A model generated the notes under the pieces. That model was not told the DNA's origin. It made no database searches and saw only the letters and a program-made list of their open reading frames with translations. The translations under genes were made by a program, and so were the position numbers. From assembly GCA_964493115.1 (NCBI GenBank), contig CAZBNF010000001.1, positions 1,786-65,785 of the forward strand: a DNA stretch of 64,000 nt, in the 5' to 3' direction. This document shows, one piece after another, positions 2,044-42,011 of the stretch (its first letter is position 1; each line of letters starts with the position of its first letter). Source of the stretch: an uncultured Planctomycetia bacterium (GTDB taxonomy: Bacteria > Omnitrophota > Gorgyraeia > JABMRG01).

Positions 2044-2047
2044 TGTT

Positions 2048-4302: not shown

Positions 4303-4451
4303 ACCATCCTCCTCTTAAAGCTTAGCTTTTTTTAGTTTAGTATTATTATAACAAATAGAAATACCTTATGGTAGGGGAAAGTGAGAGAAGCGGTGTTTTT
4401 TTAATATGATAGTTTTGCTGGGGGTATGAGATATGCGAACAGACTATATAA

Positions 4452-7400
4452 TTACGCGGCTTTTTGTATTGCGCTGTTTCTATTTTTAAGGTTTCTAAGA
4501 TTTGCAGGGTCAATTCTGTTGCTTCTTATATCAACAGCAGGCGTTGTGACCGTGGTTTCTTGTGGAGTCATTAATGTATCGGATGTAATGCTTCTTTGGG
4601 CATTAGCAGATGATAATAATCTCATAACAGCTTTTTCAAGGATCAGGCTTGAGCGATGTTTTTGCTGCAGCCTCTGCAAAACAGGAAGTGCCCTTATATC
4701 TTCTATTTTACCTAATACTTCGGCAAGGCCTTCCATTTGACTTATACTATTAGTTTTTTCTATCGTATTTAGCAAAACAGGCACTATTTCTTTGCCTTTT
4801 TGTGTTAATACCTCTATGGCTTGTTCTCTTTTTTCTAAGGCAAGATGTTCTTCATTATAAGAACCAGCGCTTGAAGATTTCACCTGCATTTCAGCAGTTT
4901 TTGAAAGACTATTAACCCCAACTTCGGAAGCGGGTTTTTGATGCACTATAATATCTATTAAAACTTTGGCCAACACTTTTGGTAAATCATCAATCTCATT
5001 AACTAAAATAAATGGTTTATAAACATCTTTTACGTATTCCATAGCATATCCAATACCTATGCCAATTACTTCTATGTGTTTTCTATGGGCTTCAGCTAAA
5101 TATTTAGTTACACTCTCTCTCCCATTGCCCTGCCCATCTGTAATTACAATAGCTATCTTTGAATCTCCATCTTGACTTTCTAATTCCTTGATTGCCAACT
5201 CTACAGCCTCTGCATCGTTAGTGCCTTGTCCGCGTGCCATATAACTTAGCACTTCACTAATCAGGCTATCCTTGTTTTCATACCGGAATTTCTTGCCAAA
5301 CTCTTTATGAATCCAAGCTCTTTCGCTAAAACCTATTACGCTAAAATCAATATCCAGCCGCGATAGTACTTCTTGCAATAATACCAGGCTATGCATAGCG
5401 TTTATTACCTTATCAGAAGATCCCATTGAACCGCTTTCATCTAAAACAAGTGCAAATTTGAAGCTGCGCTTAGTAGGCTTTACTCTTCTTAACCATATGT
5501 CCATATCTGCGGTTTGTTCCATTTGCATGGCTTTTCTCAAATTTAGTTTTGGCCCGGTAGAATAATCACCTTTATATTTAGGCTTAATGTCTTTATGTAA
5601 TTCATTATCCAAAACACCGAATAACTGTTCAATCAAGCGGGTCATAGGAAGATAGTACTCATCATAACGTGTTAATTTTCTTTTACTATCTTGGTCGAGC
5701 TTCTCTCTAAGCTCTATTTGCTCTAATGCTGAAAGAGATTTTTCGCTTTTAGAAGCTGGGATACTTCGATCCATTAAGCCCTGAGGCTGCCCTACTCCTT
5801 CAGAAATTTTAGATTTACTATCTTTTCGTTCCCGACTTTCTTCTTTAGTAAGTGCGTCTGATGCTGTTTTTTTCTCATCAGTCTTATCTGCGCTACCCTT
5901 TATTACTTGGTTTTTAGTATCTGCTCTGCCGGCATCTTTCTTTACCCTGCTGCTTCCCGCAGTTTTATCTTCGGAAACAGTTTTTTCCAATTCTTCGTCA
6001 ATGGGAAATTTTCGCCCTAAAGCGTCTGCTGCTTCTTTAGATTTTTGTTCAACTTCTTGATTAGCTTTTTCCTGTTGTTGCTGAGAAGAAGCACCCTTAC
6101 CACTAGTTCGACTATTATTTTGCTTAGCTATACTTTTAGAGTCCTCTACGAGCTCATTATACGCGGGCAATATGTTGTGCTTGATAATCCATGCTGCATT
6201 TTGTGCAGCGCTTATTTTTTCTTCTGCGCTAGGGCTGAGATTGATAACAATATGGTGGGTTTCCCCTTCGGATAAACTAATGATTTCTTTATGACCCCTT
6301 GCTGTTGTCAGTACAATTTTATTCTCATCGATGCGCTGTATAGCACTTATATCAGGCTGTCCCAAATATTGCCTTTGCCCTATATGAGGAAGGTCAATAG
6401 ACATTGGTTTAAATACAGGAGAAGAAATTGTTATTCTATTTCCGCGTTCTTTTGTTACTGAAATAGTTCCCGGTAATGTTTCATAGGCCCTAATAGCGTC
6501 TTCCCTGGTTCTTTGCAGGACATCTAAAACGCGCTTATTCTTAATTGCAGGATGCTCTTTACCGTAAAACCAGTGGTGGATCAATCCTAATCCATATTGA
6601 ATATGCGGTAAAACAGTTGAATCATGAAAGGGCTCTTTTTGATCTATGGGGAATGTTTCTTTGTATAGATCTCTAAAGTAAGAAGAAGCCCCCTTATATT
6701 TTGCCATAATCCAATTATTGACCCGTGGATCTTCTACAGCATTAAATAAAAATCTATTTGATTCTGATTCGTGGAATTCGGGGTCAACCCATGTAATGTC
6801 ACGATGGCTGCCCTCATGCATAGCAGTTGCTACGTTGCACCGCCAGTTCTTCTTCATTAAATCCTTCTCAGGAAATACAATCGTGGGCGGGTCGGTATCA
6901 TATGTAATGCCCCATTCGTTTCCTGGATGGGGCTGAACTTTAACATTAAAATCTCCGCCAAAAAATTTCGCGGTTAATTCAATTTTACGCATAGCACTGT
7001 TTACCCGCTGCAGCTTTTGCCAGCGGTTTAACCTGCTAAACCAGCTTAATTCCTGCTGAGCCTCAGTTATATGCAATCCTGCAGAAGATGATTTTTGCGA
7101 AGTCAAATTTTCTGGATTTTTTCCTAGCTGTTCCTGCAAATTCGCTATTTCTTTATACATGCCATCTATTTTCTTGCTTAACTGGGCTAGGGCATCGCTT
7201 GTTGATTTAAGACTTTCTAATTTCTTCTGCATTGTTTCCAGATCATCTTCTGGATCTTTAGCAATTTGGCCTAAGGTTCCTTGCTGTTTTACATTTTTCT
7301 TTAAAATTAAATCTAGCTGTTCTTGAATATCATCAAGTTTGCTTTCAGTGCTTTTGGTTTCAACCGTTTTAGTTTCCAGCTCTTGTTGCGGAGCTCTGGC

Positions 7401-10400
7401 GGACTCCTCTAATCTTGCCTCTTTTTCCTGTCTTTCTTTTTCAGCTTGTGCTTTGTGCGCGGTTTCTGCTTCGGTTGCTTGAATACGGGATTCTGCTTCT
7501 TTAAATTTCTGCTCAAAACGGTCTTTTAATTCTTGCGTTCTTTGTGGATCATGCCTTTCCACAATAACTATCTTTTCTTCAAACAACTTTCTTTCTCTCT
7601 CTAAACCCTCTCTGCTGCCTGCTGAGGATGTCTTAGTAGCCGCGATATTGTCTAGGGACTGCATAATCGACTCTATATCAGACACAGCATTTCCCACGCT
7701 GATTGCAATAGCGCGCTCTGTATCAATCTTTTGCCTTCTGGCATTTATCTCTTTTTCAATATCGGCAAACTCGGCGTACAAGTCCTCTCCATATCCTTGC
7801 TTAAATTCCACGGAATATTTACCCGCATGCTCTTCGGACGCAGCTATCAGGACTATATCATTAACTATATCTTCATTTTTATCTATTATTGACTCTATTT
7901 GTTTAGACTGCTGCCTGCTTAGCTCTTCTAATCTTGCCTCTTTTACAAATAAAGTTCTGGGTTGTGAAATAGTTTTAAAAAACTCATTTGGAATTTCAGT
8001 TTCTTTTGTCTCTCTTTCAGGAGCAGCCAAGTAATGTTTGACTATTGAAATTTGTTCTTCTTCAGGCTGTTCACCAGAAACCCACAGTAAGCTAAATTTG
8101 TTAAGCATGGCCAAAGACAACCTCATTCTGCCTGCATAACTTTCAGGATTCATCGCAGCAAATAACCTAAAGGTGGGGTGTATACGATAAAAACCTTGTT
8201 TCCTCAACTGCGCATGAGCAATACTATCTGCTGTAGCAGGGTCTCGCGTAATGTTACCGCTTTTTAGTATCTCTTCTTTAAGTTTGTTGAATTTAGTATC
8301 ATATAATTTTGCGGGTAAATAAACTTCGTTCTCATGCTCTGTAACCACAAGAATTCCATCATCATCTAAGAGACTATTTATGCGCTCAAGCACTTCAGGC
8401 TCAGCTAAATTTAACTCATCAATGAGAATCCAACTGCCAGTTTCTAATGCTTGGAGCAATGCCCCTGGGTACCATTTATATCGGTTGGTCTTTTCCTCGG
8501 GAATAAACTGACCTATGAGTTCAGCTACATCCGTTTGGCCATCAAGATCTAAACTTATAAAATTTATATTGACAAGATCCGATAGATGTCTTACAAAAGC
8601 AGTTTTTCCGCCTCCTGTTGGCCCGACAAGAAGCATGGGTTCGTTTCTTAGTACCGCCTTGGCTAATTTTTTAAGATACTTAGAGGTAGAAGGTGTTAAA
8701 TCTAAAGGATGAGCAGGAACATAAATATCCCTACGGCCATTTGTTTCAAGATATATATCTCCGAAATATATTTTATTACCCTTACTAGAAATCTGATAAT
8801 CAGTATCATAAAAATCACTGCCAAATTTTTCAGCTAGCGTATCATAAAGATATTTTCTAAGTTCCTCTTGATGCATTTCTTCAGATAATCCATCACCATA
8901 AACTTCTTTGCCCTCTAAAACAGCCGCTCTTCTTAACGTATTTTCATCTTTAACCGTAGTGTCTTTTATGCGGTTCAGCCACCGCATTAAATGTCTAATA
9001 GTATAATATATCTTGCCATCTGCCAACTTTCTCCCTTTCTCTTTTATCTGGAAATGTACATCTAAAAACTTATCTAGAAGCTGGGCAGGGAGCTCCCTTC
9101 CGTAAAGTTCCTTGATGATGTCCATTGTATCGGGGTCTCTACGTAGTTCATCTATCCACTTAACCCTGAATCTATTCATTAAAGCTGGTGAAAATCTTTT
9201 TCTACCAGCATATTCTGCATCAGCGGGATTCATTGTCGCTAACAAACGGAAGTCTGGATGTATGCGGTATAGTTTTGTATCTTTAACCACAAGATACTCT
9301 GCGCCGTTTGAGTCCTTTTTAATCGCATCTGTATTGGATTTAAGTAAAATCTTTTTTTGATCATCATACCTCTCTGCCTGTATCCATTTCTCATTCTCAT
9401 GTTCGGTCACTACTAAAAATCCATCATCGTCTAATAAGGAATTTAATCTCTCAATGATCTGAGACGGGGCAAGATTGATCTCATCTAAAACAAGCCAATG
9501 CCCTTCTCGCATTGCTTCGATTAATATGCCATTGCGCCAAACAAAAACGCCATTTTCATCGGGCTTAAAGCCACCAATAAATTCTAATTTTTCTGTTTGG
9601 CCGCTTAGATTAAATCTTCGGAAATTATTTCGTGATTTATTAGCAAGATATCTTATAAAAGAAGTCTTACCTACGCCTGTTTCTCCTACCAATAAAAGAG
9701 GTTCTTTTAAAATTATACTCAAGGCAATATTGCTGAGATTTAATTTTGTTTGAGGCGTTAAAATAAGTCTTGCAACTTCTTCACTGGGGACATAATCCAA
9801 TGTATTATTTTTATTAACAAGCACTTGGGCACCTTCAATGTCAATTGATTTACTATCAAAATTAATTTCAACAGGCACACGTCCAATCGCATACAATTTT
9901 AAATAATCCAAGTCCAACAACGGGACCGCCATTTGCTTTCCCTTCAAAACATCCTCAATAATCTCTATAAACAGTTTCCTGTCGTTTGTTTTTGAATCCT
10001 CTCCTTTTTCATTTTTATATCTGAATTCTTTGGCATGCAGCCTGTCAATATAGATATAAGCCAGTCCTTTATTAAATGCCTTATTCATGCCAACTTTAGG
10101 GCTCATCATGGAAATATAACGTGATAGAGCCCGCAATTCTCTTATGCTAAACTCATATTCTGCAGTAAAAACTGAAAGTTTTTTAAAAATATCCTGGAGT
10201 TCTGTGTGGAATAAAACCATGGCTTTAGCTGCTGAGTCCAAGGCGTGGCCTTTAATAGTACCTTTTGAATACTCCGATAAATATCCTTTAGTTATTTCCG
10301 TTAATTCTTCAAAAGACATATCGCCAGAAATCCAGATTTCGGTAAATTTATTACGCATTGCTATAGACAGCCTGTTTCTGCCTGCATAATGCTCTGGGTT

Positions 10401-22400: not shown

Positions 22401-25400
22401 AAGAATAAGCAGCTTAATTATGTCATTTGAACGCTCAAGGACTTTTGTTTTATTTTTATCTAAAATATATAGAATTAGTTCCGAGGCCTTAAGCCCTGCA
22501 GGGTCATTTATTTTCCTTAGGCTGCGGGCAATATGCTTTTTGACTATCCATAACGGATTTTCTAAGCAACGCATTAATTCTAAACCCCCAGCATTACCAA
22601 GTGCAGCCAAACTATCTTCAGCCTGTGTTTTTTTGGTGTCTACCTGGGTTTCTATTACATTGATTAATGGATCGATTGCTCGTAAATCTTTTGCTTTAGC
22701 CAAAGCGTGACCTACTATAAGAGGGTTTACATTTTTTCCTTCTCTCCAGCTATTTAAGAGATACTCTAAGGCCGGTTTTCCTAAAGCAACAAAAATATCT
22801 AACACTTCTGATTCAAAACGGTCGTAATCATGCCAAGGAATACTGCGCTCCTTTTCAATTAACAACCTAACTATGGGAAGACCAATTGCAATCAAGCTGT
22901 TTCTCGCAGCCAAACGTTTTTGCTCATTCTCGCTTACTAAACTATTAACAAACTCTTCTATTTCCTTCTGAGAAAACTTTATTTTAGTCTCTGTTCTTTC
23001 GTCCCTGGGAACTTCAGGCGCTTTCTCGATTTTTGCTTTTGAAATGGGCGGAGTAACTGCAGGCGGAGCCTTTTCTACTACTGGCGCTGTTTCAGCTTTT
23101 ACTTCAGAAACAGGCGGCTTAACTTGAAGAGCTGGGGACTTTACTTCAACTTCTGCCTTCTTTTCAATAACAGAAAGCACTTGCTGAGCCTTACTCGCCT
23201 GCGGCTCTTTGCCTAAGCGGGCAGCGTTTTGAAGGTATTTTATAGAGCCCCTGTCTTTCTTCCCTTTTTGATATGAATCTATTGCTTTAAGTACTCTATC
23301 TATAAAATCCTTATCTTCAGGGATACCATCTTTAATTGGCTGGACATAACTCATCCTGACAGCATTGCTTTTATGGTAAATTCTATCTAAAGTAAGTATA
23401 TCTGGTAACAGCCGAAGCGCATTGGGGTTATGGACACTATAGAATGCGTACTTAGCCCACTCCTGAACCTCTTCTGATTTGCTATATAAAGCATCTTTTA
23501 AAAATAGGAATCCTTCTTTATCTCCCAGTTGCATAAGAGCCCCCGCAAGAAGTATACATGCTTCGCTGGGACCATACCCCTCAAGGAGCTTATCTTTGCC
23601 TGCACTTTTTAGATATTCGCTGCTTTCTCTCGTAGCATATTTATCAAATACTTCTCTTATGCCCATTATCGCAGGGTCACCGATTGTATCGACAATATGC
23701 TGAAGAAGGCTTTTTAATGTTTTCGTACTATTTTCACGCACGCGACGCCACCCTGCGGGATCTTGCTGATATTGATGCTCAATTAGCGACGCAAATATTA
23801 ACCTCATCAAAGAATTTAAAGTACGGCTTATGCCTATAGGGCTGCCAAGAACACATAATAGGTGGGCAATTGAATTTAAAAAATCATCGCTATAGCTTAC
23901 TTTTCGGTTAATTGGTTTACCTTGAACATCATTATCTTTAATATAATAATAAGGATGGGCATATATTTCTTCAAGATATCGTATTGCAGAAAGCCTTATG
24001 TTTTCCAATTTTAATATATTTTCAATTACATCTCCACCAACACCATCTACATATAGTTGCATTAGCTCTCTTAAAACTGCACTATCGATTTCTTCTAACG
24101 ATTCCCAAATCTCTAAAACTTTTTGCATTTCTTCCGTGTTATAAAAACGCACCGCAGGATCTTCTAATCCGAGATCTTTAAGAGCTTTTTCTATAATAAC
24201 ACGTACATTTTTCGCACTAATAAGTTTTGGTTTTTCTTCAACAGGGGCTGTTGATTCTGGCTTAACTATTGGTTTGGTCGGAGCTTCTTCTACTACTGGC
24301 TCTGTTTCAGCTTTTACTTCAGGAACAGGCGGCTTAATTTTTTCAATAGGCCAGATTCTGGCAAAACCGCGCCAGGTCCAAGGATCTTTTCTTGGAAAAG
24401 AATCTAAAATTTCTTTATCCACGCCTATAGGCGCTAAACCCAGGCCTGCAAGCCTGCTTTGATAGGCAGTTTCTGAATCTGTCGGCACGATTTCAGATGC
24501 CTTATTCTCACGGCTAAGCGGTGGAAGTGTTGCGGTATATTCCCTTGCGTATTTTTTCTGAAAATACCCAACAAGCCCGCCATTAGGTGCATAAAAATTA
24601 GAAACAAAACCTAACCAGACTTGCTTAAATCCTGTATCTTGAGCGTATTTTGTTAAAGTCCCTATTATCTGTTCGCCAACGCCTGTAGATTCCTGAAGAT
24701 TATTAAAGGGGGGATTTTTCTCTCTCGGTTTAGGCATCGTATGAAATGGGCCTGCATCCTTAGAGGGCAGCTGCAAGGCATCGATAAGTAAAACAGCTTG
24801 ATTGTCTTTGTTTCTGGCAGCTGCTGTATAGACATTTCCTGCCCACTCCCACTGTCCTTGCGTAAGTTGTTTATACAATCTAAATTTTAAGAAACCCGGG
24901 CTGCGAATGTGGCCAAGAACATACTTTAAAAAAGGAGAACCATTGGCAAAGCCTGGGTCAGTACAATCCGCGCTGATATAACCCCCAATTAAATCTAAGA
25001 TATCACGCGGCGCTAAAACAAGCTTGTATTGACGGCCATTATAAGTAAAACCTAATCCGTTTTCTATAGAAGAGGGTGTTGCATCAAAAGATTCCTTTAA
25101 TCCGGCCTGCCTTTTAAACTGGTCGTAATCCTGCACAGAAAGCATATCCTCTTTTTTTATTCTTCCTCCTTGGGAAATGCTGCTGTAAAGGCTCTCTATT
25201 ATTCGGCTTAAAGAAGCGTCTTTTTTTGCCAGGTCAATTAACATTGCCTTAATTTCTGCTTTTGAGTCTTTAAAAGGATACAAGTTATTAAGCACAGCCC
25301 AAATATTCTGATCATGCTGGGGGATATTATCAAAGAGCTGGCTTATCATATATTCGGGAGTTCTTCTTCTGGCCTGTTCTTTCGCCTCTTCTTCTGTCAT

Positions 25401-28400
25401 GATTTTTGTTTCATAGATTTTCAATATATTCTGCTGAAACTCCCTGATATATTTAAGGATCTCGTATGTAGCAGGCCATCCCTTCTTACTTACCAAGTCT
25501 TCTGAAAATCTTATTCCGTCTTTTCCTAAACTTGCAAGCAAGCTGCCTTCTGGCTTTCCGCCTACAGAAACAATGTGTGCTTTGTATAAGGCATTCTTAA
25601 AATCCAAGTCCAGGCCGCCGGGATAGAAAGAATCCCCCATAATAAGCAATGCCTCGCCAGGGGTTTTTTGCTGGTATTTTTCATCAACTACATCCCTGAT
25701 GAAATGCTCTGCCGCAACAGCTTTGTTTGCGCCTGTTGTTAATATATGTATCGTGCGCCCGCCTGCTACGCGGGGAACAAGCGGCCAGCCGTTAGCTTTA
25801 AATAAATCTATCAATTCCCCAAAGGCCTTTTTCCTATCCTTAAGGCCGGATACTGTAAGAAGTCCCTGCCTGTAATGCAATTTGGCTTTAGAGTCTATTT
25901 TTTCTCTTATAGCTTTGGCTATTGTTTTTTCGCATTCTTTATTTGTAGCAAGAGGTGTATTTTCAGAGGCATCATAAACAGGCGTATCTATTAAATTGCC
26001 ATTTTCGTCAAACCTATTGCATCTTGCGCCTGCTGCGGTATAAATAGTAAGATTATTCAGTAGCTTTTTATCTTTTGCTGCTGCCTTATCTATAATATAT
26101 CTTTTAACTTCATCTAGTCCCTGCGTGGTAATTAACGCGATTTGAACCCCTTGCCCTAATAAAGAGAGCAGTTCATTTAGCATCTTCATATCAATTTCTT
26201 TTGTAACATCGGTAAGGGTGTTGTCTATATCAAATATCATTGCACGATAAGGTTGAGGCGGGGTAGCCTTAGGCAATATTACCTTGGGCTTTTCTATCTC
26301 TTCTTTTTCTTTTCTAAGCCGGGAAAGCTCTTGCTCTAAAGACTCTTTTTGCCCTGCCAGCTTTTCAACATCTAAAGCAAGAGTTTGCCTTTGAGACTTA
26401 AGCTGAGTTATTTCGGAGTTTAGTTTTTCGTGTATTTTCTCTGATTGAGATATCTCACTTCTAATACCGTCTAATCGTGCGCTTAAGATTTCTTTTTCTT
26501 TGGTCAGCATGGCTAATGCCGACTGCTGTGCTTGCGTTACAGACTTTAAGGACTGCAGTTGTTGCGTAATACCACGTAAGTCCTGCTCAAGCTGGGATGT
26601 TTTTTCTAAAAGCGAGTCCTTTTGTTTGGTAAGCCGGCTCACTTCCTCTTCAAGCGTGTCTTTTTGTTTCTGCGCTGACTGGAGTTCCTCATTTTTCTGA
26701 GTAATCTGAGCGAGCAGATCCTGTATTTTGGAGTTTAAATTATCTATCTGCGAGACCTTATCGCTTGCCTTGTCTTTTTCAGCAGTTTCTTTTTCACCTT
26801 TTTCACCAATAATTTCAGCTGCTTGGGCACGTAAATTAGTCAATTTTTCTGTAAGCGCAGACAGCTCGTTTTGCTCTGAAGATAATTTATCTTCAACAGC
26901 TTTTTTACGCTTAGCAAGCTCTGCGATGTCTGATTCATACTGGGTTTTTTCAGCGCTTAGCCTGCTAAGACCCGAGTTTATACTGTCAAGTCTATTCTTG
27001 GCTTCTTTAATATGCTGGTCGGATTTTTCTTCTTCAGCCTTAAGCGTTGCTATCCTATCTTCAAGTGCCTTCTCTTGCTGCTGCTTCTTTTTAATCTCAG
27101 AAACAAGGATTGAAAGAGTATCGCGGGCCTGCGGTATCTGTTTTTGGATATTGTTTAATTCTTCCTGAAGGGAAGTTCTGTTATCTGATAGGGTGGATAT
27201 TTCTTTTTCAATAGATGCTCTTGCTATATTAAGATTTTGAACATCTTGCTCAAGAGCGGACTTTGTATTTTCAAGGCTCTGTATCTGCTGTTGCGGGCCT
27301 GCAGCTTCTGGTGCGCTTGCTTGGAGTTTTTCTTTTTCCTTTTTATCTATTGCTGATTGTATGTTTATAAGGCGCTGTTCTAAGTCGGCTATTTCTTTTG
27401 TTAGGTTGTTTTTTTCCTGTCTTAATCGGGCTATTTCATTTGATAGAGCCGTATTCTCTGATTGCAGTTCTTTTTCTCTTGTGGCAAGAGCCTGTATTTT
27501 TTCTTTAAGACTATCCTGGTCTTTTAATAGTTGATCTATGTCTTCTTGAGGAGCTTTAGGCTTTTCCTGTACAATGGCTGCGACTGCCTCTTGTCTCTTA
27601 GAGGCCCTGGCCATTAATCGTGCCTCTCCCATTTTAAATAAATAAGGCTTAACAGGGAGATTAAGTTCGTCTAAGAGGGCTTTCTTTTTCTTTAATGTCT
27701 CTTCGCTTACAGTAAGAAGTCCTATGTATTTCCCTTCCCCAACATCTATTCCTAACTCATTTTTTATAAAATCTGCTCTTTTGGCTAAGTCTACTTTTGT
27801 GTATCTTGCAAGCCGCTGAACATATTTTGCCTGCATATTTGCCCCTAGAGACTCGAGTAGAGCTTTTTGTTTTTCAGGTGTTGTTTGTGCAGGCGGGGCC
27901 CTTGGCTCAGTTTTTTCTAAAACATCTGGGGCAACCGGTTTTTCGCTTATATCCCCTTTTAAACCTTCCACTTGCTTATATAAAGCATCTACTGCCTTAC
28001 CCATTTGGGCAAGGGCATCTCTTGCTGCTTCAAGCTCTTTTAATTGTTCTCTTGCGGATTTTAACCATTCTGTTAAATCTTCATTTTCAGCAGGCGGCTC
28101 TGTAATCTTATGTTGTTTTGTCATACCATCCAGAAATACACCTAGTTGCTTTTCAACATCATCGGTTTTTTTCTCAAGTTCTGTAATTCTTTTTGCATTA
28201 TGTTCGAGATCCTCGGCAGGGTCTGCATCTATTTTTTTAACTTCTCTAACAGGTGGTATTGCAGCGGCGGCCACTGGCTTTTCTGTTGGTTCTGCGGGTT
28301 TTGCAGGTACTGCTTGCGCTACTGGTACTGCAGGTGCTAATGGTTTTGCAACCGCAGGAGCCTCTTGAGGTTGTTGATGTGCTTCAGTATCCGGTTTTTG

Positions 28401-30212
28401 TTGTTCTCTAAAAAGCCTTTCAAGTTCTACGGCTTTATCTTTATTTTCTGCGGCACTTCTTTTGGCGTCTTCTTTATCCTGTTTTGCTTTAGCTAAGAGC
28501 CTTTTTGCCTCTTTAAGCTCATCTTCTTTCTGCTTTAAAGACGCTTCAAGTGCTTTTGACTCTGCTATTTTCGATTTAAGGGCTTTATTTCGTGCTAATA
28601 AAGCTATAATTGAAACTATAGGAATACCTATAAGTAATAAGAGTGATAAAATGGCTAGCGTTTTTTGAAGGGCAGAGCTGTCTTGCCAGAATCTGATTAA
28701 TGTGTGGGGGGCTTCTGTCTCTTGTTTAAGTTTTTGTTCATATACTTTTTGCTGAGCAGAGAGCTCTTTTTCAAGGCTGGCTACCTTTTCTTCCTGCTCT
28801 GTTATTTTATCCTGCTGTTGGCTGACTTTATCTTCATAGGCCTTTGCTTGCCTCTGAGAATCTTCCAGGCTTTGGGCAAGAGTTTCTGCCTTTTGCCTTT
28901 GCCCACCAAGCTTATCTTCTAAATCCCGGGCCATTACTTCTGCCTGATCTGCCTGGCTTTGTAGTAAGTCCTTAACTTCTGTTATTTTTTCTACAAATTC
29001 GTCCTGAGCGCCTGTAACCTTATCTTGCAATTCAGAAAATCTTTCTAAAACCTCTGCTTTTTCTTCCTGTAAAGACTCTACATCACTTTCTAAAACCTGA
29101 GTTCTGTCTTGAAGCTCAGCAATCCTTTGTCTATCCTGTAATCTTTCGCGAGCTTCTCTTAATTGCCCTAATGGTTGGCGTCTTAAGCCCTGTTCTTCTA
29201 AATCTTGGGCCAAGCGCCCCATATCAGGCGACCAATACAAGTAATTGTTTACCTGCTCAAGGCTGCCTTTACCTTTTCTTAAGGAATTTAAAGCCATTCT
29301 TAACCGTAATAGATCAGCACGAGAAAGTGAGTCGTCTTTTTCAGCGCCACGTAAGGCCTCTACTGTCTGTCGGCCAATTCTTACGCCCTCCCAGAAGGTA
29401 TGGCTGTCCCTGTCCGCAAGCTGGCATATCAGTGAGGCTATTTCAGAATACCTTACTGCTTCAATTCTTTGTATATCAACCTGCTCTTGTTGCGTTAATG
29501 GTATTATAACTTCCGCGGGTTGAGTTTGCGCATTAGACATGCTGGCCAGGCCCATTGTGAAAATAAATGCTGAGATAAGCAGTATGTTTCGAAGTATTTT
29601 AGTGGGGTTTAAATTTTTAAAGAATGTGGGTTTTGCAGATGAGATACCTGATGAAGATGACTTAACATCCTGCTGCTTGATTTTAGGAAGCGGCATACTC
29701 TCTCTGCCTGTTCCCGCAGCTATATCTATTTTACTTTTAAGATAATCTATGTCTAATGCCCTGATAAGTTCAATTGTTTCAGGGTCTATACTGCCTAAAT
29801 CAACGCCCTTATATCCTAATGCCCCCTCTATTTCTAAACTAATAGGATTTGACTTTACAGATTGTGCTCTTAAAGCAGAGTCTTTATTGAATGAAAAGTC
29901 CCAATTACATGCCCACGAGATATCGTGGAGTAAAAAGGCAAGGATTATAACTATAGAAATGATTTTAAAGATAAAACGGCTGGTCTTATTACGTTGCCAC
30001 ACCATGAATAAACCTCTATTTGAGACGTTTATATAATCTTTGAAAAAAGACTTATAAAGATAATAGCATAATTCTAGTTTTCTGTCAATAAAAATTTGTA
30101 CTTTTTTGAAGTTTTTTTTGTAAGTGTTTGGGTGATCTTTTATATACCCCAATTGCTGCTTAGCAACATGGTTTATTATATCGCCAAACATTTGCATTGT
30201 AAAGCGGTTCAT
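4452..30212 (-). CDS. Giant multidomain membrane protein (8586 aa), midasin-like. From N to C it carries N-terminal TM and signal-like segments, a long coiled coil, a HAD-like domain, HEAT/PBS-lyase repeat arrays, internal multi-TM blocks, six AAA+ (AAA_5/MoxR/dynein-midasin type) ATPase domains, an HExxH motif region, and a C-terminal vWA/MIDAS domain.
   Basis: A single uninterrupted ORF of 25,761 nt. It contains six Walker A motifs (GETGVGKT or GPTGSAKT/GPTGGGKT types), a DxSxS MIDAS motif (VLDESGSMGSS) with a downstream VITDGQGNG, a HAD DxD motif (MIFDIDNTLTD), and a long array of AAEALGxxGDxxAIxPLIxAL-type HEAT repeats. Its start codon overlaps the stop of the upstream small ORF (ATGA). 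Confidence 0.85.
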   Translation of the reverse strand: MNRFTMQMFGDIINHVAKQQLGYIKDHPNTYKKNFKKVQIFIDRKLELCYYLYKSFFKDYINVSNRGLFMVWQRNKTSRFIFKIISIVIILAFLLHDISWACNWDFSFNKDSALRAQSVKSNPISLEIEGALGYKGVDLGSIDPETIELIRALDIDYLKSKIDIAAGTGRESMPLPKIKQQDVKSSSSGISSAKPTFFKNLNPTKILRNILLISAFIFTMGLASMSNAQTQPAEVIIPLTQQEQVDIQRIEAVRYSEIASLICQLADRDSHTFWEGVRIGRQTVEALRGAEKDDSLSRADLLRLRMALNSLRKGKGSLEQVNNYLYWSPDMGRLAQDLEEQGLRRQPLGQLREARERLQDRQRIAELQDRTQVLESDVESLQEEKAEVLERFSELQDKVTGAQDEFVEKITEVKDLLQSQADQAEVMARDLEDKLGGQRQKAETLAQSLEDSQRQAKAYEDKVSQQQDKITEQEEKVASLEKELSAQQKVYEQKLKQETEAPHTLIRFWQDSSALQKTLAILSLLLLIGIPIVSIIALLARNKALKSKIAESKALEASLKQKEDELKEAKRLLAKAKQDKEDAKRSAAENKDKAVELERLFREQQKPDTEAHQQPQEAPAVAKPLAPAVPVAQAVPAKPAEPTEKPVAAAAIPPVREVKKIDADPAEDLEHNAKRITELEKKTDDVEKQLGVFLDGMTKQHKITEPPAENEDLTEWLKSAREQLKELEAARDALAQMGKAVDALYKQVEGLKGDISEKPVAPDVLEKTEPRAPPAQTTPEKQKALLESLGANMQAKYVQRLARYTKVDLAKRADFIKNELGIDVGEGKYIGLLTVSEETLKKKKALLDELNLPVKPYLFKMGEARLMARASKRQEAVAAIVQEKPKAPQEDIDQLLKDQDSLKEKIQALATREKELQSENTALSNEIARLRQEKNNLTKEIADLEQRLINIQSAIDKKEKEKLQASAPEAAGPQQQIQSLENTKSALEQDVQNLNIARASIEKEISTLSDNRTSLQEELNNIQKQIPQARDTLSILVSEIKKKQQQEKALEDRIATLKAEEEKSDQHIKEAKNRLDSINSGLSRLSAEKTQYESDIAELAKRKKAVEDKLSSEQNELSALTEKLTNLRAQAAEIIGEKGEKETAEKDKASDKVSQIDNLNSKIQDLLAQITQKNEELQSAQKQKDTLEEEVSRLTKQKDSLLEKTSQLEQDLRGITQQLQSLKSVTQAQQSALAMLTKEKEILSARLDGIRSEISQSEKIHEKLNSEITQLKSQRQTLALDVEKLAGQKESLEQELSRLRKEKEEIEKPKVILPKATPPQPYRAMIFDIDNTLTDVTKEIDMKMLNELLSLLGQGVQIALITTQGLDEVKRYIIDKAAAKDKKLLNNLTIYTAAGARCNRFDENGNLIDTPVYDASENTPLATNKECEKTIAKAIREKIDSKAKLHYRQGLLTVSGLKDRKKAFGELIDLFKANGWPLVPRVAGGRTIHILTTGANKAVAAEHFIRDVVDEKYQQKTPGEALLIMGDSFYPGGLDLDFKNALYKAHIVSVGGKPEGSLLASLGKDGIRFSEDLVSKKGWPATYEILKYIREFQQNILKIYETKIMTEEEAKEQARRRTPEYMISQLFDNIPQHDQNIWAVLNNLYPFKDSKAEIKAMLIDLAKKDASLSRIIESLYSSISQGGRIKKEDMLSVQDYDQFKRQAGLKESFDATPSSIENGLGFTYNGRQYKLVLAPRDILDLIGGYISADCTDPGFANGSPFLKYVLGHIRSPGFLKFRLYKQLTQGQWEWAGNVYTAAARNKDNQAVLLIDALQLPSKDAGPFHTMPKPREKNPPFNNLQESTGVGEQIIGTLTKYAQDTGFKQVWLGFVSNFYAPNGGLVGYFQKKYAREYTATLPPLSRENKASEIVPTDSETAYQSRLAGLGLAPIGVDKEILDSFPRKDPWTWRGFARIWPIEKIKPPVPEVKAETEPVVEEAPTKPIVKPESTAPVEEKPKLISAKNVRVIIEKALKDLGLEDPAVRFYNTEEMQKVLEIWESLEEIDSAVLRELMQLYVDGVGGDVIENILKLENIRLSAIRYLEEIYAHPYYYIKDNDVQGKPINRKVSYSDDFLNSIAHLLCVLGSPIGISRTLNSLMRLIFASLIEHQYQQDPAGWRRVRENSTKTLKSLLQHIVDTIGDPAIMGIREVFDKYATRESSEYLKSAGKDKLLEGYGPSEACILLAGALMQLGDKEGFLFLKDALYSKSEEVQEWAKYAFYSVHNPNALRLLPDILTLDRIYHKSNAVRMSYVQPIKDGIPEDKDFIDRVLKAIDSYQKGKKDRGSIKYLQNAARLGKEPQASKAQQVLSVIEKKAEVEVKSPALQVKPPVSEVKAETAPVVEKAPPAVTPPISKAKIEKAPEVPRDERTETKIKFSQKEIEEFVNSLVSENEQKRLAARNSLIAIGLPIVRLLIEKERSIPWHDYDRFESEVLDIFVALGKPALEYLLNSWREGKNVNPLIVGHALAKAKDLRAIDPLINVIETQVDTKKTQAEDSLAALGNAGGLELMRCLENPLWIVKKHIARSLRKINDPAGLKASELILYILDKNKTKVLERSNDIIKLLILAFFEESDKEIINFIIECIEDMDENIVKEALNKKIEETKNDTTLAVASKNERLKRLVKISRELIIKQPLLDILNDKESNWDLLRLSALELAKFKIRNPKVEIISLLCEFKDRTDMFDKKFPESRALTQPPVEFIDRIKEIQIDPELISILLKSLTSLDPDDSIKVNAIRALGFVGAEEAIAPLTNSISGGKTGLEAILALGKIGAGLATPTQTEKRSYIVQTLIDKYPLSIIGNERLKIELMRAITIALAEAGGRDAIRFLVTKASWERWISLVGEVDVYILTQPFEDTRAIIKDVLNSSYEIDRISKTARRPESEIIKELKNLLERVNQEEQNINQAISKSKLPKSGMLDRAKRWFKGPKMFLMGLVIVSSWLGFTPQIHAQQPVPEEHIMRTTQPSEEETKIELPTVRQRPQAIPQQTVETPEKTEQQRLEEEKARIERQKRAEAARIEQERKRQEERIKREQEQAERKRVEAERRRLAGMVFKWIGLSILGLGSIVGAGYLIKASVENSKAVGKGIGKAIKHTVLLPYYFGKYLIYYPISGFIKGVEKTEEFIKGQIEEKRVGKEITAASVFFMVYCFYLLYSIGMHEELLKKSSPSVNELAKLLNNISITTMWVTFGFLGFLSLFATVRYIIKKKLSRPVSGVALFLVIAFSGISGFIGYKTAVYFSSKESANRITAIKGLTEHKQRGSRDQKIIISLIEALSDRETSIREAAAEALGICGDSQAIKPLIEALNDSSYEVRRAAVASLNRLGVIENTTDTELLKKILGLNSELQSKVTDAFVRIGRPALSSLADMLRDINNSQYQDTAKAALVRIGKDHPQQVMQAASKVLSNDNPSVRRRAVEIVSELNNPQAVDFLMRASSDSDWEIREHAVKALARVKTDSQEASILRSIDNYDENALVNMGKPAVSFLISALDGPSRHHTYRRDGLNRADFAAKILGIIGDKAAVEPIINAMQNRRINWKIAIDALTQLNDSRAVEPLLLMAKGRYDKDFDIQVVVEAIIHISGADPTPILLKALQDNDDEVCRTAAMVLARSNSPDIIKPFIERLDDRESDIVNISIQTLGRLRAEKAVRPIIRILKNSTISGEHLIYPLKAEHNRPYYGSRNLEIKRSIVEEALVQIGRPAAMPLLRISDHEKTGEEAQNILAKIGPEAVSPLVERLNHWNPSARKQSVELLTRIGVPAIPSLIQAFGSDAYTVREGALNALLDINNPDASINLLIPALQNQNEDVRWRAAIALAQMTDKQAVGPLIGITNDKSVRVRKAAVQALGSNGGFDTAQSIGPLMERLQDDDLFVRKAAIVSLERASLNYQFRNLVAHRIAASLRDSDWRVRAVAANILGNFSYSQEIINSLTPYLDDPNPYVRRQTVFSLGRLSPPNIQIFLNKALNDPDEYVRLTTAKAIEEIIALDNVYIDRFLQRILHHGENIRKTAIAELKEKSNSQIVYRLVRVLASQESPETERAHALNAIKMLDTQGVRALIVGLESKDVLTRQLSAEALVSIGKPACDELVANLRNENPLTRQALLNVLVRIGAPSKRALTNSIWDKSDLELSGLAKAVLWKIDYLEAQKTHQNLHFNYVTWPEIKKWARVLAPSYLIILVGIGGLFGFIKYIREQKTKRKASSILRHVGLNQKPMIIAEAFIRSGLNIELRINSNYKDLITSKEKGMLEKVLSELAASGNLQAIQKITKIKIVTGNDRLMHLDKNTHEIIIDKDAFKSYYLLFMEIEHELQHILVESLNRRAPPVIEELTVLRHEIMRFLSFVPSQQEEVLSVLKADNDLDDRKFHEILTYAQNYGIEKIPDLLIKYIRQFYPKDLQHGLSAAIMVVLRDKVISLWQDLHSKRIASYLGTKYDIEPKIANLMVRFHRKMVADIHKRNIGENKLEPYEFTLRELYKWAKFYQRFHTQWGAATSFIKGAVYVYADRMENQKDKDRFYYNINALSLDLEVLELADYKEGRKIDLLALLSKEQAINNIVKNDRDITIGDLKIKINVSTDSEYIPSRQSAELVLIPRTIEDLEKVALAVDLNDPVLLIGETGVGKTSLVRDLAFLTKNAFRRFNLNGQTDKLEFIGGFKPSHTYLTREDAIDIINQAVAASTRQEQRILAESVGLITGGKISFPKAKKLIQDALSARRWELVANVAEAIAHKKGLDKQKGVKFEWYNGILIESMQKGHWLVLDEINLAEPEVIERIRYLLEPKGYLKINEHKGEQWLQAKDYDKLVNEYAGSHTGTRENLIKQAITQLSARGIFRIHPNFRIFATMNPPEYEGRKQLSPALMNKFRVKWIRNFTQDEICEILRKKYHLNDDIINRLSNFYAELAGISGKEGELGKEIGQPYYFTIRQFFRLALRIQQWLSRLSNIPSPEIINKQLALEAQEVYGDSLKSEADQRLFKGLLRKEQVFGCEPPQVDTEIKIDEPKNKVYFGDVALPINKKGGLFIPTSKAELAPIPATKKNLRNLARSIEMKENLLLVGPTGSAKTASLTNIAYLTKNNFIRLNLDSQTDIGDLIGKNIPKEGTSEFLWQDGDLIRAMKEGYWLLLDEFNLAEPEILERINSLLDDDGSLVVTEHKGEVWIPGYVYDEKKANGENMANLRRIHENFRLFAAMNPEHYAGRNRLSLAMKNKFIEKWFSGDFSPEELKEIIRFYLAKEGLFKGPPIQGKSLDTIIEVMASVHMSILNKIRENRFNRLALSGNAEDYNFSLRDLKDWAEFIRNLVMQIGEGVIAKSVEDNRQQLNEKREILTMISDPVKKQEYIEKLKEVKLNPLEGLLQREKNADNKQKLASRIIKIKEEITKISDPQKIEEYKKELQSGIEKTMQSIAFFEQIKTDPHNIWYWGINRAIFDGAIYIYCDRLYGSAARTKEHISGDKDIFYKEILGPIFTQAVQSGIGGLEAISVEEERELLGEGVSFNELISQGKSEGMDIASQKLAAKFVDLTLGFPKELREKYLIHIFSNLTNPDKQIHGIYGFALLPKGIALELIDAALEHPNSKIKQAAMETLSQVFDPRDKNFVNEFTPFAAKLAVFLSDDNQDLRLTSALVLEKLEWVEWEQKAIPRLSQNPGKRPDKLPWDKTLQRLIRLKDSSGDYLGIFGFLKKKSTIISLLLISSAVMIFATPFILQASSFSLSTALIAFLGYLFGSRIWRFNKENAATYLVTGTIVAGLLTLPVILALYTTSSILVFSAYLSIFSGVFGISFGLLDLLGQSYYLIYLPQLQILSARYKKLALDLEDFYSLLEKTKEGKFIHFPFESEEKLNYFNTWYGKLTLLSGFILGIIFNISLFHTAKIDSLPVIPIIGWVPQWTQIAFGAITGGAFGYFISSFTILAATTFREIVYKPIKAIYGDEIKKREWIGFREILSSYGPLIIETFKKYRNALLESNNIVASIKKEATSKDDMLKTLRPDAIKRLDNGALIYKIFVPAPLQDSGNTQVFIPESENSELIPVIDTVKALKQISLSVLLDDPVLLIGETGVGKTSLVRYLANLTRHSFRRFNLSGQTDKTEFIGGYKPDLSGVFKWKDGILLEAMLYGHWLVLDELNLAESQVLERLNSLLDDDRTLVLAEHLGEHFKSIGVYEEKKRQGAEEFFDEFRKVNYLVDSDGRRIYCVHPDFRLFATMNPAEYAGRKILSPALMNRFRVKWIDELTTTEKKLVLLEKYYAKETGALKDDIEKHFISGDGSLDRLGIVHERISTAAKLREIGKDAVDPYHYSIRDLLKLGKRVARIIDLEENNTSMPLDGYQRDDILMRELWEVYSDRIRDEDEQDFLANELIRIAFEKQSVLGQSPQIVQSDSIFGDIVVPKNQRGGPYIPGREAILTHTQSTLHYLRRIAKAVMMNEKVLLVGPTGSAKTSFIRYIAHLTQNNFARMNLDAQTDTSELIGQYVPVEGKKNEFFWQDGMLVRALKEGWWVLFDEINLAEAEILERINSLLDDDSCLVITEHENEKLISSVEYEKKLDVFIKEYITSGVSKEEARQRAIEKLTKEKIFRIHPDFRLFSAMNPEHYAGRNRLSIAMRNKFTEIWISGDMSFEELTEITKGYLSEYSKGTIKGHALDSAAKAMVLFHTELQDIFKKLSVFTAEYEFSIRELRALSRYISMMSPKVGMNKAFNKGLAYIYIDRLHAKEFRYKNEKGEDSKTNDRKLFIEIIEDVLKGKQMAVPLLDLDYLKLYAIGRVPVEINFDSKSIDIEGAQVLVNKNNTLDYVPSEEVARLILTPQTKLNLSNIALSIILKEPLLLVGETGVGKTSFIRYLANKSRNNFRRFNLSGQTEKLEFIGGFKPDENGVFVWRNGILIEAMREGHWLVLDEINLAPSQIIERLNSLLDDDGFLVVTEHENEKWIQAERYDDQKKILLKSNTDAIKKDSNGAEYLVVKDTKLYRIHPDFRLLATMNPADAEYAGRKRFSPALMNRFRVKWIDELRRDPDTMDIIKELYGRELPAQLLDKFLDVHFQIKEKGRKLADGKIYYTIRHLMRWLNRIKDTTVKDENTLRRAAVLEGKEVYGDGLSEEMHQEELRKYLYDTLAEKFGSDFYDTDYQISSKGNKIYFGDIYLETNGRRDIYVPAHPLDLTPSTSKYLKKLAKAVLRNEPMLLVGPTGGGKTAFVRHLSDLVNINFISLDLDGQTDVAELIGQFIPEEKTNRYKWYPGALLQALETGSWILIDELNLAEPEVLERINSLLDDDGILVVTEHENEVYLPAKLYDTKFNKLKEEILKSGNITRDPATADSIAHAQLRKQGFYRIHPTFRLFAAMNPESYAGRMRLSLAMLNKFSLLWVSGEQPEEEQISIVKHYLAAPERETKETEIPNEFFKTISQPRTLFVKEARLEELSRQQSKQIESIIDKNEDIVNDIVLIAASEEHAGKYSVEFKQGYGEDLYAEFADIEKEINARRQKIDTERAIAISVGNAVSDIESIMQSLDNIAATKTSSAGSREGLERERKLFEEKIVIVERHDPQRTQELKDRFEQKFKEAESRIQATEAETAHKAQAEKERQEKEARLEESARAPQQELETKTVETKSTESKLDDIQEQLDLILKKNVKQQGTLGQIAKDPEDDLETMQKKLESLKSTSDALAQLSKKIDGMYKEIANLQEQLGKNPENLTSQKSSSAGLHITEAQQELSWFSRLNRWQKLQRVNSAMRKIELTAKFFGGDFNVKVQPHPGNEWGITYDTDPPTIVFPEKDLMKKNWRCNVATAMHEGSHRDITWVDPEFHESESNRFLFNAVEDPRVNNWIMAKYKGASSYFRDLYKETFPIDQKEPFHDSTVLPHIQYGLGLIHHWFYGKEHPAIKNKRVLDVLQRTREDAIRAYETLPGTISVTKERGNRITISSPVFKPMSIDLPHIGQRQYLGQPDISAIQRIDENKIVLTTARGHKEIISLSEGETHHIVINLSPSAEEKISAAQNAAWIIKHNILPAYNELVEDSKSIAKQNNSRTSGKGASSQQQQEKANQEVEQKSKEAADALGRKFPIDEELEKTVSEDKTAGSSRVKKDAGRADTKNQVIKGSADKTDEKKTASDALTKEESRERKDSKSKISEGVGQPQGLMDRSIPASKSEKSLSALEQIELREKLDQDSKRKLTRYDEYYLPMTRLIEQLFGVLDNELHKDIKPKYKGDYSTGPKLNLRKAMQMEQTADMDIWLRRVKPTKRSFKFALVLDESGSMGSSDKVINAMHSLVLLQEVLSRLDIDFSVIGFSERAWIHKEFGKKFRYENKDSLISEVLSYMARGQGTNDAEAVELAIKELESQDGDSKIAIVITDGQGNGRESVTKYLAEAHRKHIEVIGIGIGYAMEYVKDVYKPFILVNEIDDLPKVLAKVLIDIIVHQKPASEVGVNSLSKTAEMQVKSSSAGSYNEEHLALEKREQAIEVLTQKGKEIVPVLLNTIEKTNSISQMEGLAEVLGKIEDIRALPVLQRLQQKHRSSLILEKAVMRLLSSANAQRSITSDTLMTPQETTVTTPAVDIRSNRIDPANLRNLKNRNSAIQKAA
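4950..5480 (-). other. C-terminal von Willebrand A (vWA) domain with a MIDAS motif, part of the giant protein.
   Basis: The minus strand encodes RSFKFALVLDESGSMGSSDKVIN at ~5405-5460 (DxSxS) and KIAIVITDGQGNG at ~5120-5160. Confidence 0.75.
6650..6950 (-). other. HExxH motif region of the giant protein (zinc-metallopeptidase-like, possibly DUF2201_N-like). It is followed by a K/E/S-rich low-complexity linker leading to the vWA domain.
   Basis: CNVATAMHEGSHRDITWVDPEF is encoded at ~6790-6840, with HEGSH at 6804..6818. The Ser/Lys/Glu-rich linker is encoded at ~5600-6300. Confidence 0.4.
8000..16600 (-). other. Six AAA+ ATPase domains of the giant protein arranged as three tandem two-domain modules. 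A multi-TM block (~12400-13250) lies between module 1 and module 2.
   Basis: Walker A motifs are encoded at ~16262-16285 (LLIGETGVGKTS), ~14941-14989 (LLLVGPTGSAKTA), ~11967-11990 (LLIGETGVGKTS), ~10843-10890 (LLVGPTGSAKTS), ~9661-9710 (LLLVGETGVGKTS) and ~8583-8640 (LLVGPTGGGKTA). Each is followed by NFxRxNLxGQTD and Walker B (WLVLDEINLA or LLLDEFNLA) motifs typical of MoxR/midasin AAA_5 domains. Confidence 0.8.
17750..20330 (-). other. PBS-lyase/HEAT-like repeat array of the giant protein (~860 aa). It is flanked by TM segments at ~17560-17650 and ~20400-20960.
   Basis: Tandem ~31-aa repeats of the form xxVRxxAAxALGxIGxxxAVxPLIxxLxDxD, e.g. REAAAEALGICGDSQAIKPLIEALNDSSYEVRRAAVASL, encoded ~20130-20270. 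Confidence 0.7.
25600..26245 (-). other. HAD-superfamily hydrolase-like domain embedded in the giant protein.
   Basis: Motif I MIFDIDNTLTD is encoded ~26218-26240, and a downstream LLIMGDSFYPGG (motif IV-like GD) at ~25625-25670. Confidence 0.55.
26250..29320 (-). other. Long coiled-coil (SMC/apolipoprotein-like heptad) region of the giant protein, interrupted by a Pro/Ala-rich spacer and a TM helix.
   Basis: Roughly 1000 aa of E/K/Q/L-rich heptad sequence, e.g. LEQELSRLRKEKEEIEK and LQEEKAEVLERFSELQDKV. A P/A-rich spacer (KPLAPAVPVAQAVPAKPAEPTEKP) is encoded ~28260-28340, and a TM helix (AILSLLLLIGIPIVSIIALLA) at ~28600-28680. Confidence 0.6.
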
Positions 30213-31161: not shown

Positions 31162-31214
31162 GCGCAATCCGTAACTCGTTACAACTCTTTAAGTTACAAG
31201 AGTGTCTGAATCGA

Positions 31215-35168: not shown

Positions 35169-39330
<4,162 letters not shown>

Positions 39331-41997: not shown

Positions 41998-42011
41998 ATA
42001 CTCGTTTTACT

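Follow-up and report, generated by a model that had tools for sequence, protein, structure and literature searches.

The window analysed here, 64,000 nucleotides of contig CAZBNF010000001.1 (assembly GCA_964493115.1), contains a giant open reading frame (ORF) on the minus strand at 4452..30212. The frame starts with ATG, runs for 8586 codons to a single terminal stop, and has an in-frame stop immediately upstream of its ATG. Given the local G+C content of about 38% and a stop probability of about 0.066 per random codon, a run of 8586 codons without a stop has a probability of about 1e-256. An earlier sequence-only reading of this DNA had argued that such a frame cannot arise by chance, and the independent assemblies described below point the same way. 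The ORF is confirmed as a real single gene of an Omnitrophota-type bacterium.

Because the window consists of metagenome data, and contigs break near the 5' junction of the gene, an assembly artefact, a chimera or a pseudogene was considered; we regard this as extremely improbable. Window 1..14302, which covers the last 10 kb of the gene, recurs at 99.99-100% identity in seven independent metagenome contigs (JGI: three samples; ENA: four assemblies), and on one of them, the 33-kb JGI contig Ga0268278_1000366, the gene was called at exactly 8586 amino acids (aa). An eighth assembly (L032) crosses the 5' junction; it extends from gyrB across gyrA and tRNA-Glu to cover the first 650 nt of the giant ORF, with a gene call from the same ATG. 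DNA repeats inside the gene share no more than 60-80% identity, except for a single 62-nt pair (92%), and long near-identical internal repeats were not found, making a repeat collapse unlikely. Together with the homologous ORFs that stay unbroken in other metagenome-assembled genomes (MAGs), these observations make an assembly error unlikely.

The stop of an 82-aa ORF and the annotated ATG at 30212 overlap (ATGA). An alternative start is possible at M70 (ATG at 30005): a Shine-Dalgarno-like AGAGG lies 7 nt ahead of it, and a promoter-like site (TTGACA-17-TATTAT) occurs at 30088-30060; the protein would then open directly with a signal-anchor-like sequence.

Table 1 Features of the giant gene and of its 5' flank, in protein order (TM, transmembrane; pLDDT, the model confidence score)
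Feature	Residues (aa)	Window position	Strand	Basis
Whole giant ORF, 8586 aa (stop codon included)		4452..30212	minus	Same-length gene call on JGI contig Ga0268278_1000366
TM1-TM3 and ~290-aa coiled-coil segment, predicted periplasmic	80-541	28590..29975	minus	Hydropathy, flank charges; Tropomyosin match 353-499
Long coiled coil with Pro/Ala-rich hinge at 605-665, predicted cytoplasmic	542-1305	26298..28589	minus	Sub-threshold Pfam/NCBIfam SMC/Rad50/TMF-type matches; composition
HAD-like region, motifs DIDNT, T, GANK, GDS..D	1320-1600	25413..26255	minus	Sub-threshold scores only
Unassigned fold	1601-1960	24333..25412	minus	No Pfam, PDB or homologue match
HEAT/ARM-like helices between P/E/K/V-rich spacers	2000-2950	21363..24215	minus	HEAT_2 E 5.7e-11 at ~aa 2752-2807
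Five-TM cluster	2964-3268	20409..21323	minus	Hydropathy, flank charges
PBS-lyase-type HEAT array, ~930 aa, predicted periplasmic	3269-4199	17616..20408	minus	HEAT_2 E 1.6e-85, 8 stretches; NblB/CpcE-like
TM9, from HEAT array to cytoplasmic motor	4200-4221	17550..17615	minus	Position kept in L008, L013 and others
First HExxH (MEIEHELQH, ~aa 4337)	4290-4400	17013..17345	minus	Alignment; kept in closest subclade only
lid0, orphan B-type AAA lid fragment upstream of AAA1	4440-4560	16533..16895	minus	AAA_lid_7 E 1.3e-8
AAA1 (A-type, GETGVGKT) and lid	4608-5045	15078..16391	minus	Pfam, motifs
AAA2 (B-type, GPTGSAKT)	5046-5500	13713..15077	minus	Pfam, motifs
Six-TM cluster between AAA2 and AAA3	5706-5937	12402..13097	minus	Hydropathy, flank charges
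AAA3-AAA6, order A-B-A-B	6040-7400	8013..12095	minus	Pfam, motifs, module comparison
Charged, probably coiled-coil segment after AAA6	7401-7734	7011..8012	minus	Composition; no domain match
Minigluzincin-fold domain (HEGSH ... NAVED), beta subdomain, helical hairpin	7735-8064	6021..7010	minus	
Disordered mixed-charge linker (K16 S13 E12 D10 percent)	8066-8178	5679..6017	minus	pLDDT <50; composition
Midasin-type MIDAS/vWA (DESGS, T8331, D8359), GDxxTGxxLN..IWxRRxxPxKR upstream	8190-8440	4893..5645	minus	VWA_2, CobT_C, Mdn1, Foldseek
Short HEAT-like C-terminal tail	8460-8586	4455..4835	minus	HEAT_2 E 9e-4
tRNA-Glu (31215-31290) and strain divergence point (31172, 43 nt past its 3' end)		31172..31290	minus	Contig comparison

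The domain order of the protein was built from Pfam, motif scans, hydropathy scans and two structure models (Table 1). Its C-terminal ~4400 aa hold six AAA_5 modules (Pfam E 1e-38 to 1e-50 per chunk), accompanied by AAA_lid_7, the midasin lid domain. Walker A K[TS], Walker B DE, the MNP motif and the YxGR motif are kept in 6/6 modules, in full agreement with the six MoxR/midasin-type domains proposed earlier. The modules resemble one another (139-260 bits) far more than they resemble any module of midasin, with the odd ones being A-type and the even ones B-type. As far as can be judged from sequence, this comparison shows the six modules to be a triplicated A-B pair. The AAA block is not continuous: the six-TM cluster separates AAA1-AAA2 from AAA3-AAA6. 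A TM cluster is found at the same place in L008, L009, L011, L012, L013, L014, L016 and P0136.

More specifically, AAA1 carries an insert of ~75 aa, predicted to be helical, at the helix-2 insert position, and the lid of AAA2 contains a charged insert of ~100 aa. AAA6 retains only the first lid helix. Within the protein, the orphan fragment lid0 is most similar to the AAA4 lid (B-type) once the first helix of that lid is left out (E 7e-9), and the fragment is present in 10/11 aligned sequences, the remaining one (P0022) being cut short upstream. It seems that lid0 completes the truncated lid of AAA6, in the manner of a circular permutation.

The C-terminal end of the protein combines a zincin domain, a tether and a MIDAS domain. 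The proposed C-terminal vWA/MIDAS domain is borne out by VWA_2 and CobT_C matches in Pfam and by a complete MIDAS motif (D8258, S8260, S8262, T8331, D8359). The sequence-only reading had further counted HExxH motifs as extra enzymatic modules, which holds for one of the two: the second motif falls within a conserved minigluzincin-fold domain. This domain has the features of a gluzincin, with a zincin fold whose active-site helix bears the HExxH and with a Glu ligand further downstream; its metal ligands are intact, and HE..HR is retained throughout the family loci. The first motif is conserved in the closest subclade only, and the region around it has no Pfam match.

This C-terminal unit also exists by itself. 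Stand-alone proteins of 650-800 aa align with the final ~770 aa of the giant at E-values of 1e-36 to 1e-17, one of them at 52% identity. They have the same HEGxH, located ~90 aa after their N-terminus, as well as a DxSGS MIDAS motif. Across a 14-sequence alignment of giant and stand-alone proteins, HEGxHR and NxxEDPxVN are invariant. In the one relative whose genomic context was read, the stand-alone protein (P0013) directly follows a 467-aa single AAA_5 gene, the helix-2 insert of which aligns with the AAA1 insert. A further protein of 1836 aa (P0002) joins a lid, one AAA_5, HEGSH and MIDAS in one chain and may be an intermediate form. Due to these stand-alone relatives, the giant looks like a two-gene system of AAA_5 and zincin-vWA that was duplicated, fused and set in a mosaic membrane protein, which fits its earlier description as a fused, expanded MoxR-vWA system.

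In the N-terminal half, Pfam finds the tropomyosin/SMC-like coiled coil and the HEAT arrays, so that both the proposed coiled coil and the proposed arrays are substantiated. The assignment of a HAD-like domain fared less well: four motifs are visible, and the scores are sub-threshold in all libraries, with Pfam Hydrolase at E 0.033, NCBIfam HAD-IIB at E 0.004 (17 bits vs a cut-off of 41.8) and alpha-phosphoglucomutase as the best PDB match at E 0.15. Homologues of aa 1310-2000, comprising the HAD-like and the adjoining region, were not found. A 62-nt direct repeat of 92% identity (window 23064-23125 and 24279-24340) encodes P/E/K/V-rich spacers (PVxEVKAETxPVVE) that flank aa 1960-2370.

Hydropathy indicates ~15 TM segments in five clusters. 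The protein is therefore a membrane protein, as proposed, with the N-terminal anchor not being its only one. From the charges flanking TM8 and TM9 (positive-inside rule), the ~930-aa HEAT array is predicted to lie outside the cytoplasm. This agrees with the Omnitrophota giant proteins described by West-Roberts et al. (2023 preprint), where HEAT repeats occur in predicted extracellular parts only. The flank charges of the six-TM cluster fit three hairpins with both ends predicted to be cytoplasmic, and the six AAA modules can thus share one side of the membrane. Taken from its sequence, the giant protein is most likely a polytopic inner-membrane protein.

To place the protein in a family, one genome per prokaryotic species was scanned with an AAA3-6 alignment as query. 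Twelve prokaryotic genome loci were found at 39-68% identity, and all twelve belong to Omnitrophota MAGs, some of them auto-labelled Planctomycetia; the earlier guess at an Omnitrophota lineage is thus supported, the taxon of the window itself being deduced from these relatives. In nine loci (~8 MAGs), the match lies in a single open frame that extends beyond the fetched 10-kb flank, with 3203-8720 aa visible. The usual order is TM, AAA1-AAA2, a cluster of 2-5 TM segments, AAA3-AAA6 and an HExxH ~450 aa before the MIDAS motif, from which truncated loci and the variant L015 depart. About 10 Omnitrophota MAGs have unbroken homologues of this build. An exhaustive search of 1.84 billion representative proteins returned ~15-20 close members, including a complete one of 7557 aa with the same module order (P0136), followed by ~1000 eukaryotic midasins. 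The NCBI name for family fragments is only 'AAA family ATPase'. Within the scope of the species-level genome scan, this is most likely a small family found in Omnitrophota MAGs only. In P0157 (4471 aa), P0139 (4005 aa) and L015, the AAA pairs lie ~800 aa apart without the TM cluster, or the TM segments are placed otherwise. These proteins show the A-B pair to be the stable building block.

One locus presents the module set in a different form. In the long-read assembly of L006 (2882-13342), it is spread over five consecutive, partly overlapping ORFs of 1099, 662, 387, 562 and 771 aa, directly following a DDE transposase; this is either a truly split operon version or the result of frameshift errors. 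The arrangement lends itself to the idea that the giant is a polyprotein, i.e. a precursor that its own zincins or other proteases cut into an envelope HEAT protein, AAA pairs and a CobT-like zincin-vWA adaptor, and whose parts would then assemble like ordinary MoxR/vWA systems. Both HExxH motifs lie at module boundaries (before lid0/AAA1 and before MIDAS), the C-terminal ~770 aa equal a free-standing protein, and self-cleavage has been raised for Omnitrophota giant proteins by West-Roberts et al. We nevertheless judge both the cleavage and the subsequent assembly to be unlikely. The same zincin in stand-alone vWA proteins implies that it did not arise for cutting a polyprotein, the first HExxH is missing in half of the family, and the ORFs are unbroken in the nine loci noted above. 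Furthermore, the splits in L006 may be sequencing errors, given the long-read assembly, the overlapping ORF ends and a sister contig (L007) at 1.54x coverage.

Among solved structures, the AAA block matches midasins with E-values of 1e-136 to 1e-130, and NorQ, the best prokaryotic AAA_5, with 4e-7. Per module, similarity reaches up to 132 bits for midasin M3, compared with 59-81 bits for a stand-alone bacterial AAA_5 and 26-31 bits for NorQ/CbbQ/CobS. The best sequence match of the vWA domain is the MIDAS of Mdn1 (E 2.9e-11), covering GDxxTGxxLN...IWxRRxxPxKR before DxSxS, and a Foldseek search with the modelled domain returned four Rea1/MDN1 MIDAS crystal structures at the top, followed by NorD. 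These module, structure and fold scores place the motor and its hand in the midasin-like corner of the MoxR class.

Like midasin (Rea1/Mdn1), the giant protein strings six AAA_5 modules with AAA_lid_7 lids along one polypeptide and carries its MIDAS C-terminally, on a flexible tether. The parallel to the midasin order drawn in the sequence-only reading is therefore sound for the AAA block and MIDAS. It breaks down for the ~1700-aa midasin linker (stem, middle, top), to which no equivalent was found: aa 7400-8586 match only Mdn1 residues 4351-4643 at the MIDAS end, and AAA6 and MIDAS are ~790 aa apart. It also breaks down for the D/E-rich tract before MIDAS. The segment in that position (aa 8066-8178) is charged, as had been said of it, and disordered; it is of mixed charge rather than D/E-rich, with D+E at 21%, K+R at 23% and a net charge of +2. 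Other differences are a bacterial origin, 4200 extra N-terminal residues, the membrane embedding with a TM cluster within the AAA block, the zincin domain ahead of MIDAS, and the N-terminal lid fragment lid0. By the Walker B pattern of this analysis, midasins have 3-4 intact sites vs six here. The idea of a lid0 shared with midasin was not supported, as the midasin N-terminal region holds no counterpart.

Module orthology is lacking as well. Every module scores best against midasin M2 or M3, and a one-to-one diagonal with AAA1-6 was not seen. In a neighbour-joining tree of five family members, each of the six modules groups by itself in the point estimate, with bootstrap values of 72-87% for modules 1, 5 and 6 and 16-47% for modules 2, 3 and 4. 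The odd class receives 78% and the even class 76%, and a pairing of these with midasin odd or even modules at most 2%. Monophyly of all Omnitrophota modules reaches only 35%, and the deep branches are poorly supported. Midasin modules alternate too (M2~M4, M3~M5). Since the Omnitrophota modules form odd and even classes of their own, the concatenation of six AAA modules looks independent of midasin, and the simplest reading would be a separate triplication of a two-module unit, parallel to the M2~M4/M3~M5 pattern.

These data also bear on the origin of the gene. A eukaryotic midasin gene transferred horizontally into Omnitrophota and then remodelled would account for the ~1000 eukaryotic midasins that follow the family itself in the search, and for Rea1/MDN1 being nearest to its MIDAS among solved structures. 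We consider such a transfer very improbable in view of the absent module-to-module match, the cross-pairing bootstrap, the unmatched linker, the missing D/E tract and lid0. In addition, the C-terminal unit is nearer to the prokaryotic stand-alone zincin-vWA proteins (E 1e-36 to 1e-17) than to midasin (3e-11), and no midasin match to the zincin core was found. A bolder proposal, which we put forward tentatively and with doubt, runs in the opposite direction. The Omnitrophota family and its two-gene AAA_5/zincin-vWA relatives may stand nearer than any other living prokaryotes to the lineage from which eukaryotes received midasin. The A-B pair with its midasin-type lid and the MIDAS adaptor would then be older than eukaryotes, and three pairs would have been concatenated into a single-chain ring at least two times, with the bacterial ring built into the membrane and passing force between the cytoplasm and a periplasmic HEAT solenoid.

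With confidence slightly better than even, we read the product of this one real Omnitrophota gene as a polytopic inner-membrane giant that acts as a membrane-anchored, ATP-driven remodeller, with a tethered MIDAS hand gripping its substrate. In such a machine, the six modules would together form a single pseudo-hexameric ring at the cytoplasmic side of the membrane, with TM9 and the six-TM cluster as its anchors and with lid0 completing AAA6 and so closing the ring. The tethered MIDAS would, by analogy with Rea1, NorQD and CbbQO, take hold of a protein substrate at an acidic residue, and ATP hydrolysis in the ring would pull or twist what is gripped; the grip-and-pull action of AAA_5/vWA machines is taken from the Rea1, Mdn1 and NorQD literature. 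The adjoining zincin could cut the substrate. TM9 would join the ring directly to the ~930-aa HEAT solenoid, and, because of this link to a predicted periplasmic part, the motor may couple ATP hydrolysis in the cytoplasm to events in the envelope. The N-terminal half would add the long coiled coil and a possible HAD phosphatase. Since all catalytic and MIDAS residues are intact, a mechanochemical mode of action is reasonable. The membrane-anchored, MIDAS-gripping machine of the sequence-only reading holds up to that extent, and its mechanochemical working is something we infer.

Several points weigh against this picture. In both AAA2 and AAA4, the Walker A motif reads GPTGSAKT, with Ala replacing the last Gly. 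The topology derives from hydropathy and the positive-inside rule only, the predicted orientations of TM1 and TM2 conflict, and TM predictions for Omnitrophota giant proteins are unreliable according to West-Roberts et al. The AAA pairs, which are 550-800 aa apart in the giant protein and in P0157, could assemble between molecules rather than in cis, and the zincin might be non-proteolytic. Conserved neighbour genes were not found across the family loci, nor was a ligand or a ubiquitin-like (UBL) partner. More specifically, no UBL partner was seen near the giant gene; midasin binds the UBL domains of Ytm1/Rsa4 on pre-60S particles, in a eukaryotic nuclear process.

Among known systems, the MoxR-class pairs CobS/CobT, NorQ/NorD and CbbQ/CbbO combine the same AAA_5 clade with a vWA/MIDAS adaptor. 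They are homo-hexamers of an ATPase of ~270-470 aa with a separate vWA protein, whereas the giant protein holds six diverged modules and the adaptor in one membrane-anchored chain. The stand-alone zincin-vWA protein beside the 467-aa AAA_5 gene is a direct small relative of this kind. Accordingly, a chaperone for cofactor insertion or complex maturation, which like CobST, NorQD, CbbQO and RavA-ViaA would mature or metallate one specific membrane enzyme or envelope complex and would not be a general puller or protease, has to be weighed. The profile of the C-terminal module matches CobT best (E 1.3e-19) and NorD too (1e-3), the nearest named families in NCBIfam are GvpN and CobS, and the MoxR class is described as generally of the maturation-chaperone kind (PMC13036017). 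We rate this function as unlikely, on a par with the polyprotein: genes for a chelatase large subunit or of the nor, cbb, cox and gvp types were not found nearby, synteny is not conserved, the NCBIfam scores for named families are all far under their cut-offs, and the zincin domain is left unexplained. A membrane-anchored remodeller remains our preferred reading.

The comparison with FtsH serves as a working analogy only. FtsH likewise unites a TM anchor, an AAA+ ring in the cytoplasm and a zincin with HExxH in a single chain; it differs in being a classic-AAA-clade, M41 protease that threads its substrate as a homo-hexamer and lacks vWA/MIDAS, and no homology is claimed. With the Omnitrophota 'Archaeovorins' (West-Roberts et al. 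2023 preprint), the giant protein shares an Omnitrophota origin, a mosaic build, numerous TM segments and HEAT_2 arrays with a predicted position outside the cell, and AAA_5, HAD_2 and HEAT_2 are among the frequent domains of Omnitrophota giant proteins in the same preprint. Most full-length 'Archaeovorin' giant genes carry a divergent SecA_DEAD, of which Pfam finds none here; their glycosyltransferase, NUDIX and methyltransferase content was likewise not found by Pfam, and the length is 8586 aa, not >30,000. The preprint does not mention midasin, vWA/MIDAS or dynein, and a literature search for a bacterial or prokaryotic midasin returned nothing relevant.

We therefore place the protein in the class of MoxR/midasin-type AAA_5-MIDAS remodellers, as a concatenated, zincin-bearing and apparently lid-permuted form with a membrane cluster dividing its AAA block, and do not regard it as a new category. 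The single-chain ring built from six AAA+ modules, as in dynein and midasin, has been described as a eukaryotic invention from bacterial MoxR (Zhang & Aravind 2012; Kollmar 2016). A bacterial single chain of six midasin-class modules with a MIDAS hand, apparently from a triplication of its own, offers a natural comparison for the origins of such rings, and the small prokaryotic relatives could root the midasin tree. The membrane cluster inside an AAA+ block is an unusual case, and a concrete, testable machine is hereby assigned to part of one little-understood Omnitrophota giant protein.

Some 11 kb separate the giant gene from the replication origin, and the genes run dnaA, dnaN, gyrB, gyrA, tRNA-Glu, giant gene. 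Contigs that encode an identical GyrA protein (L029-L034) either continue as the window does or diverge at 31172, placing the gene at the edge of a strain-variable region. In its place, the diverging strains carry helix-turn-helix/hipBA genes, a C1 peptidase, a PEP-utilising enzyme, glmS and housekeeping genes. An att-like repeat of the tRNA-Glu end was not found in the available sequence. This position beside a tRNA gene, with hipBA there in sister strains, would suit a MoxR-vWA-type NTP-dependent conflict system or a predation weapon on a mobile island, as would a GC content below that of the neighbouring core genes, the lack of conserved synteny and the transposase beside L006. Moreover, MoxR-vWA conflict systems are known (Kaur et al. 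2020), and a link to predation has been drawn for giant proteins of Omnitrophota (West-Roberts et al. 2023 preprint). A role in defence or conflict is distinctly improbable all the same, as PADLOC returned only generic coiled-coil, HEAT and P-loop matches with no defence-specific model, an effector or toxin domain was not found in Pfam or NCBIfam, relatives were not found on viral contigs, and the MIDAS and motor parts are predicted to be cytoplasmic.

Around the giant gene, GC skew flips at window ~41900-42800, between dnaA (minus) and rnpA/yidC (plus), which marks the replication origin, and the giant gene is co-oriented with replication. A 149-aa ORF with weak winged-helix matches (TrmB, F-93) lies between tRNA-Glu and the giant gene (window 30444-30893, minus), and a strong terminator-like hairpin is located at 31117-31089, between tRNA-Glu and this ORF. 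Downstream (window 2048-4302, continued by L020 beyond the window start), a response regulator, a PilZ/methyltransferase-like protein and a HisKA_7TM-GAF histidine kinase are encoded, as are a PLD-like protein and a small PP-binding protein for which only the JGI contigs have a gene call; this set does not recur beside other members of the family. Both gyrA and gyrB contain inteins (window 31316-35149 and 35169-39032, minus), that of gyrA with a LAGLIDADG endonuclease domain. The window further holds tRNA-Cys at 50179, tRNA-Val at 51828 and tRNA-Leu at 53477, and a 6S RNA gene at 61873-62058 on the plus strand (87.6 bits).

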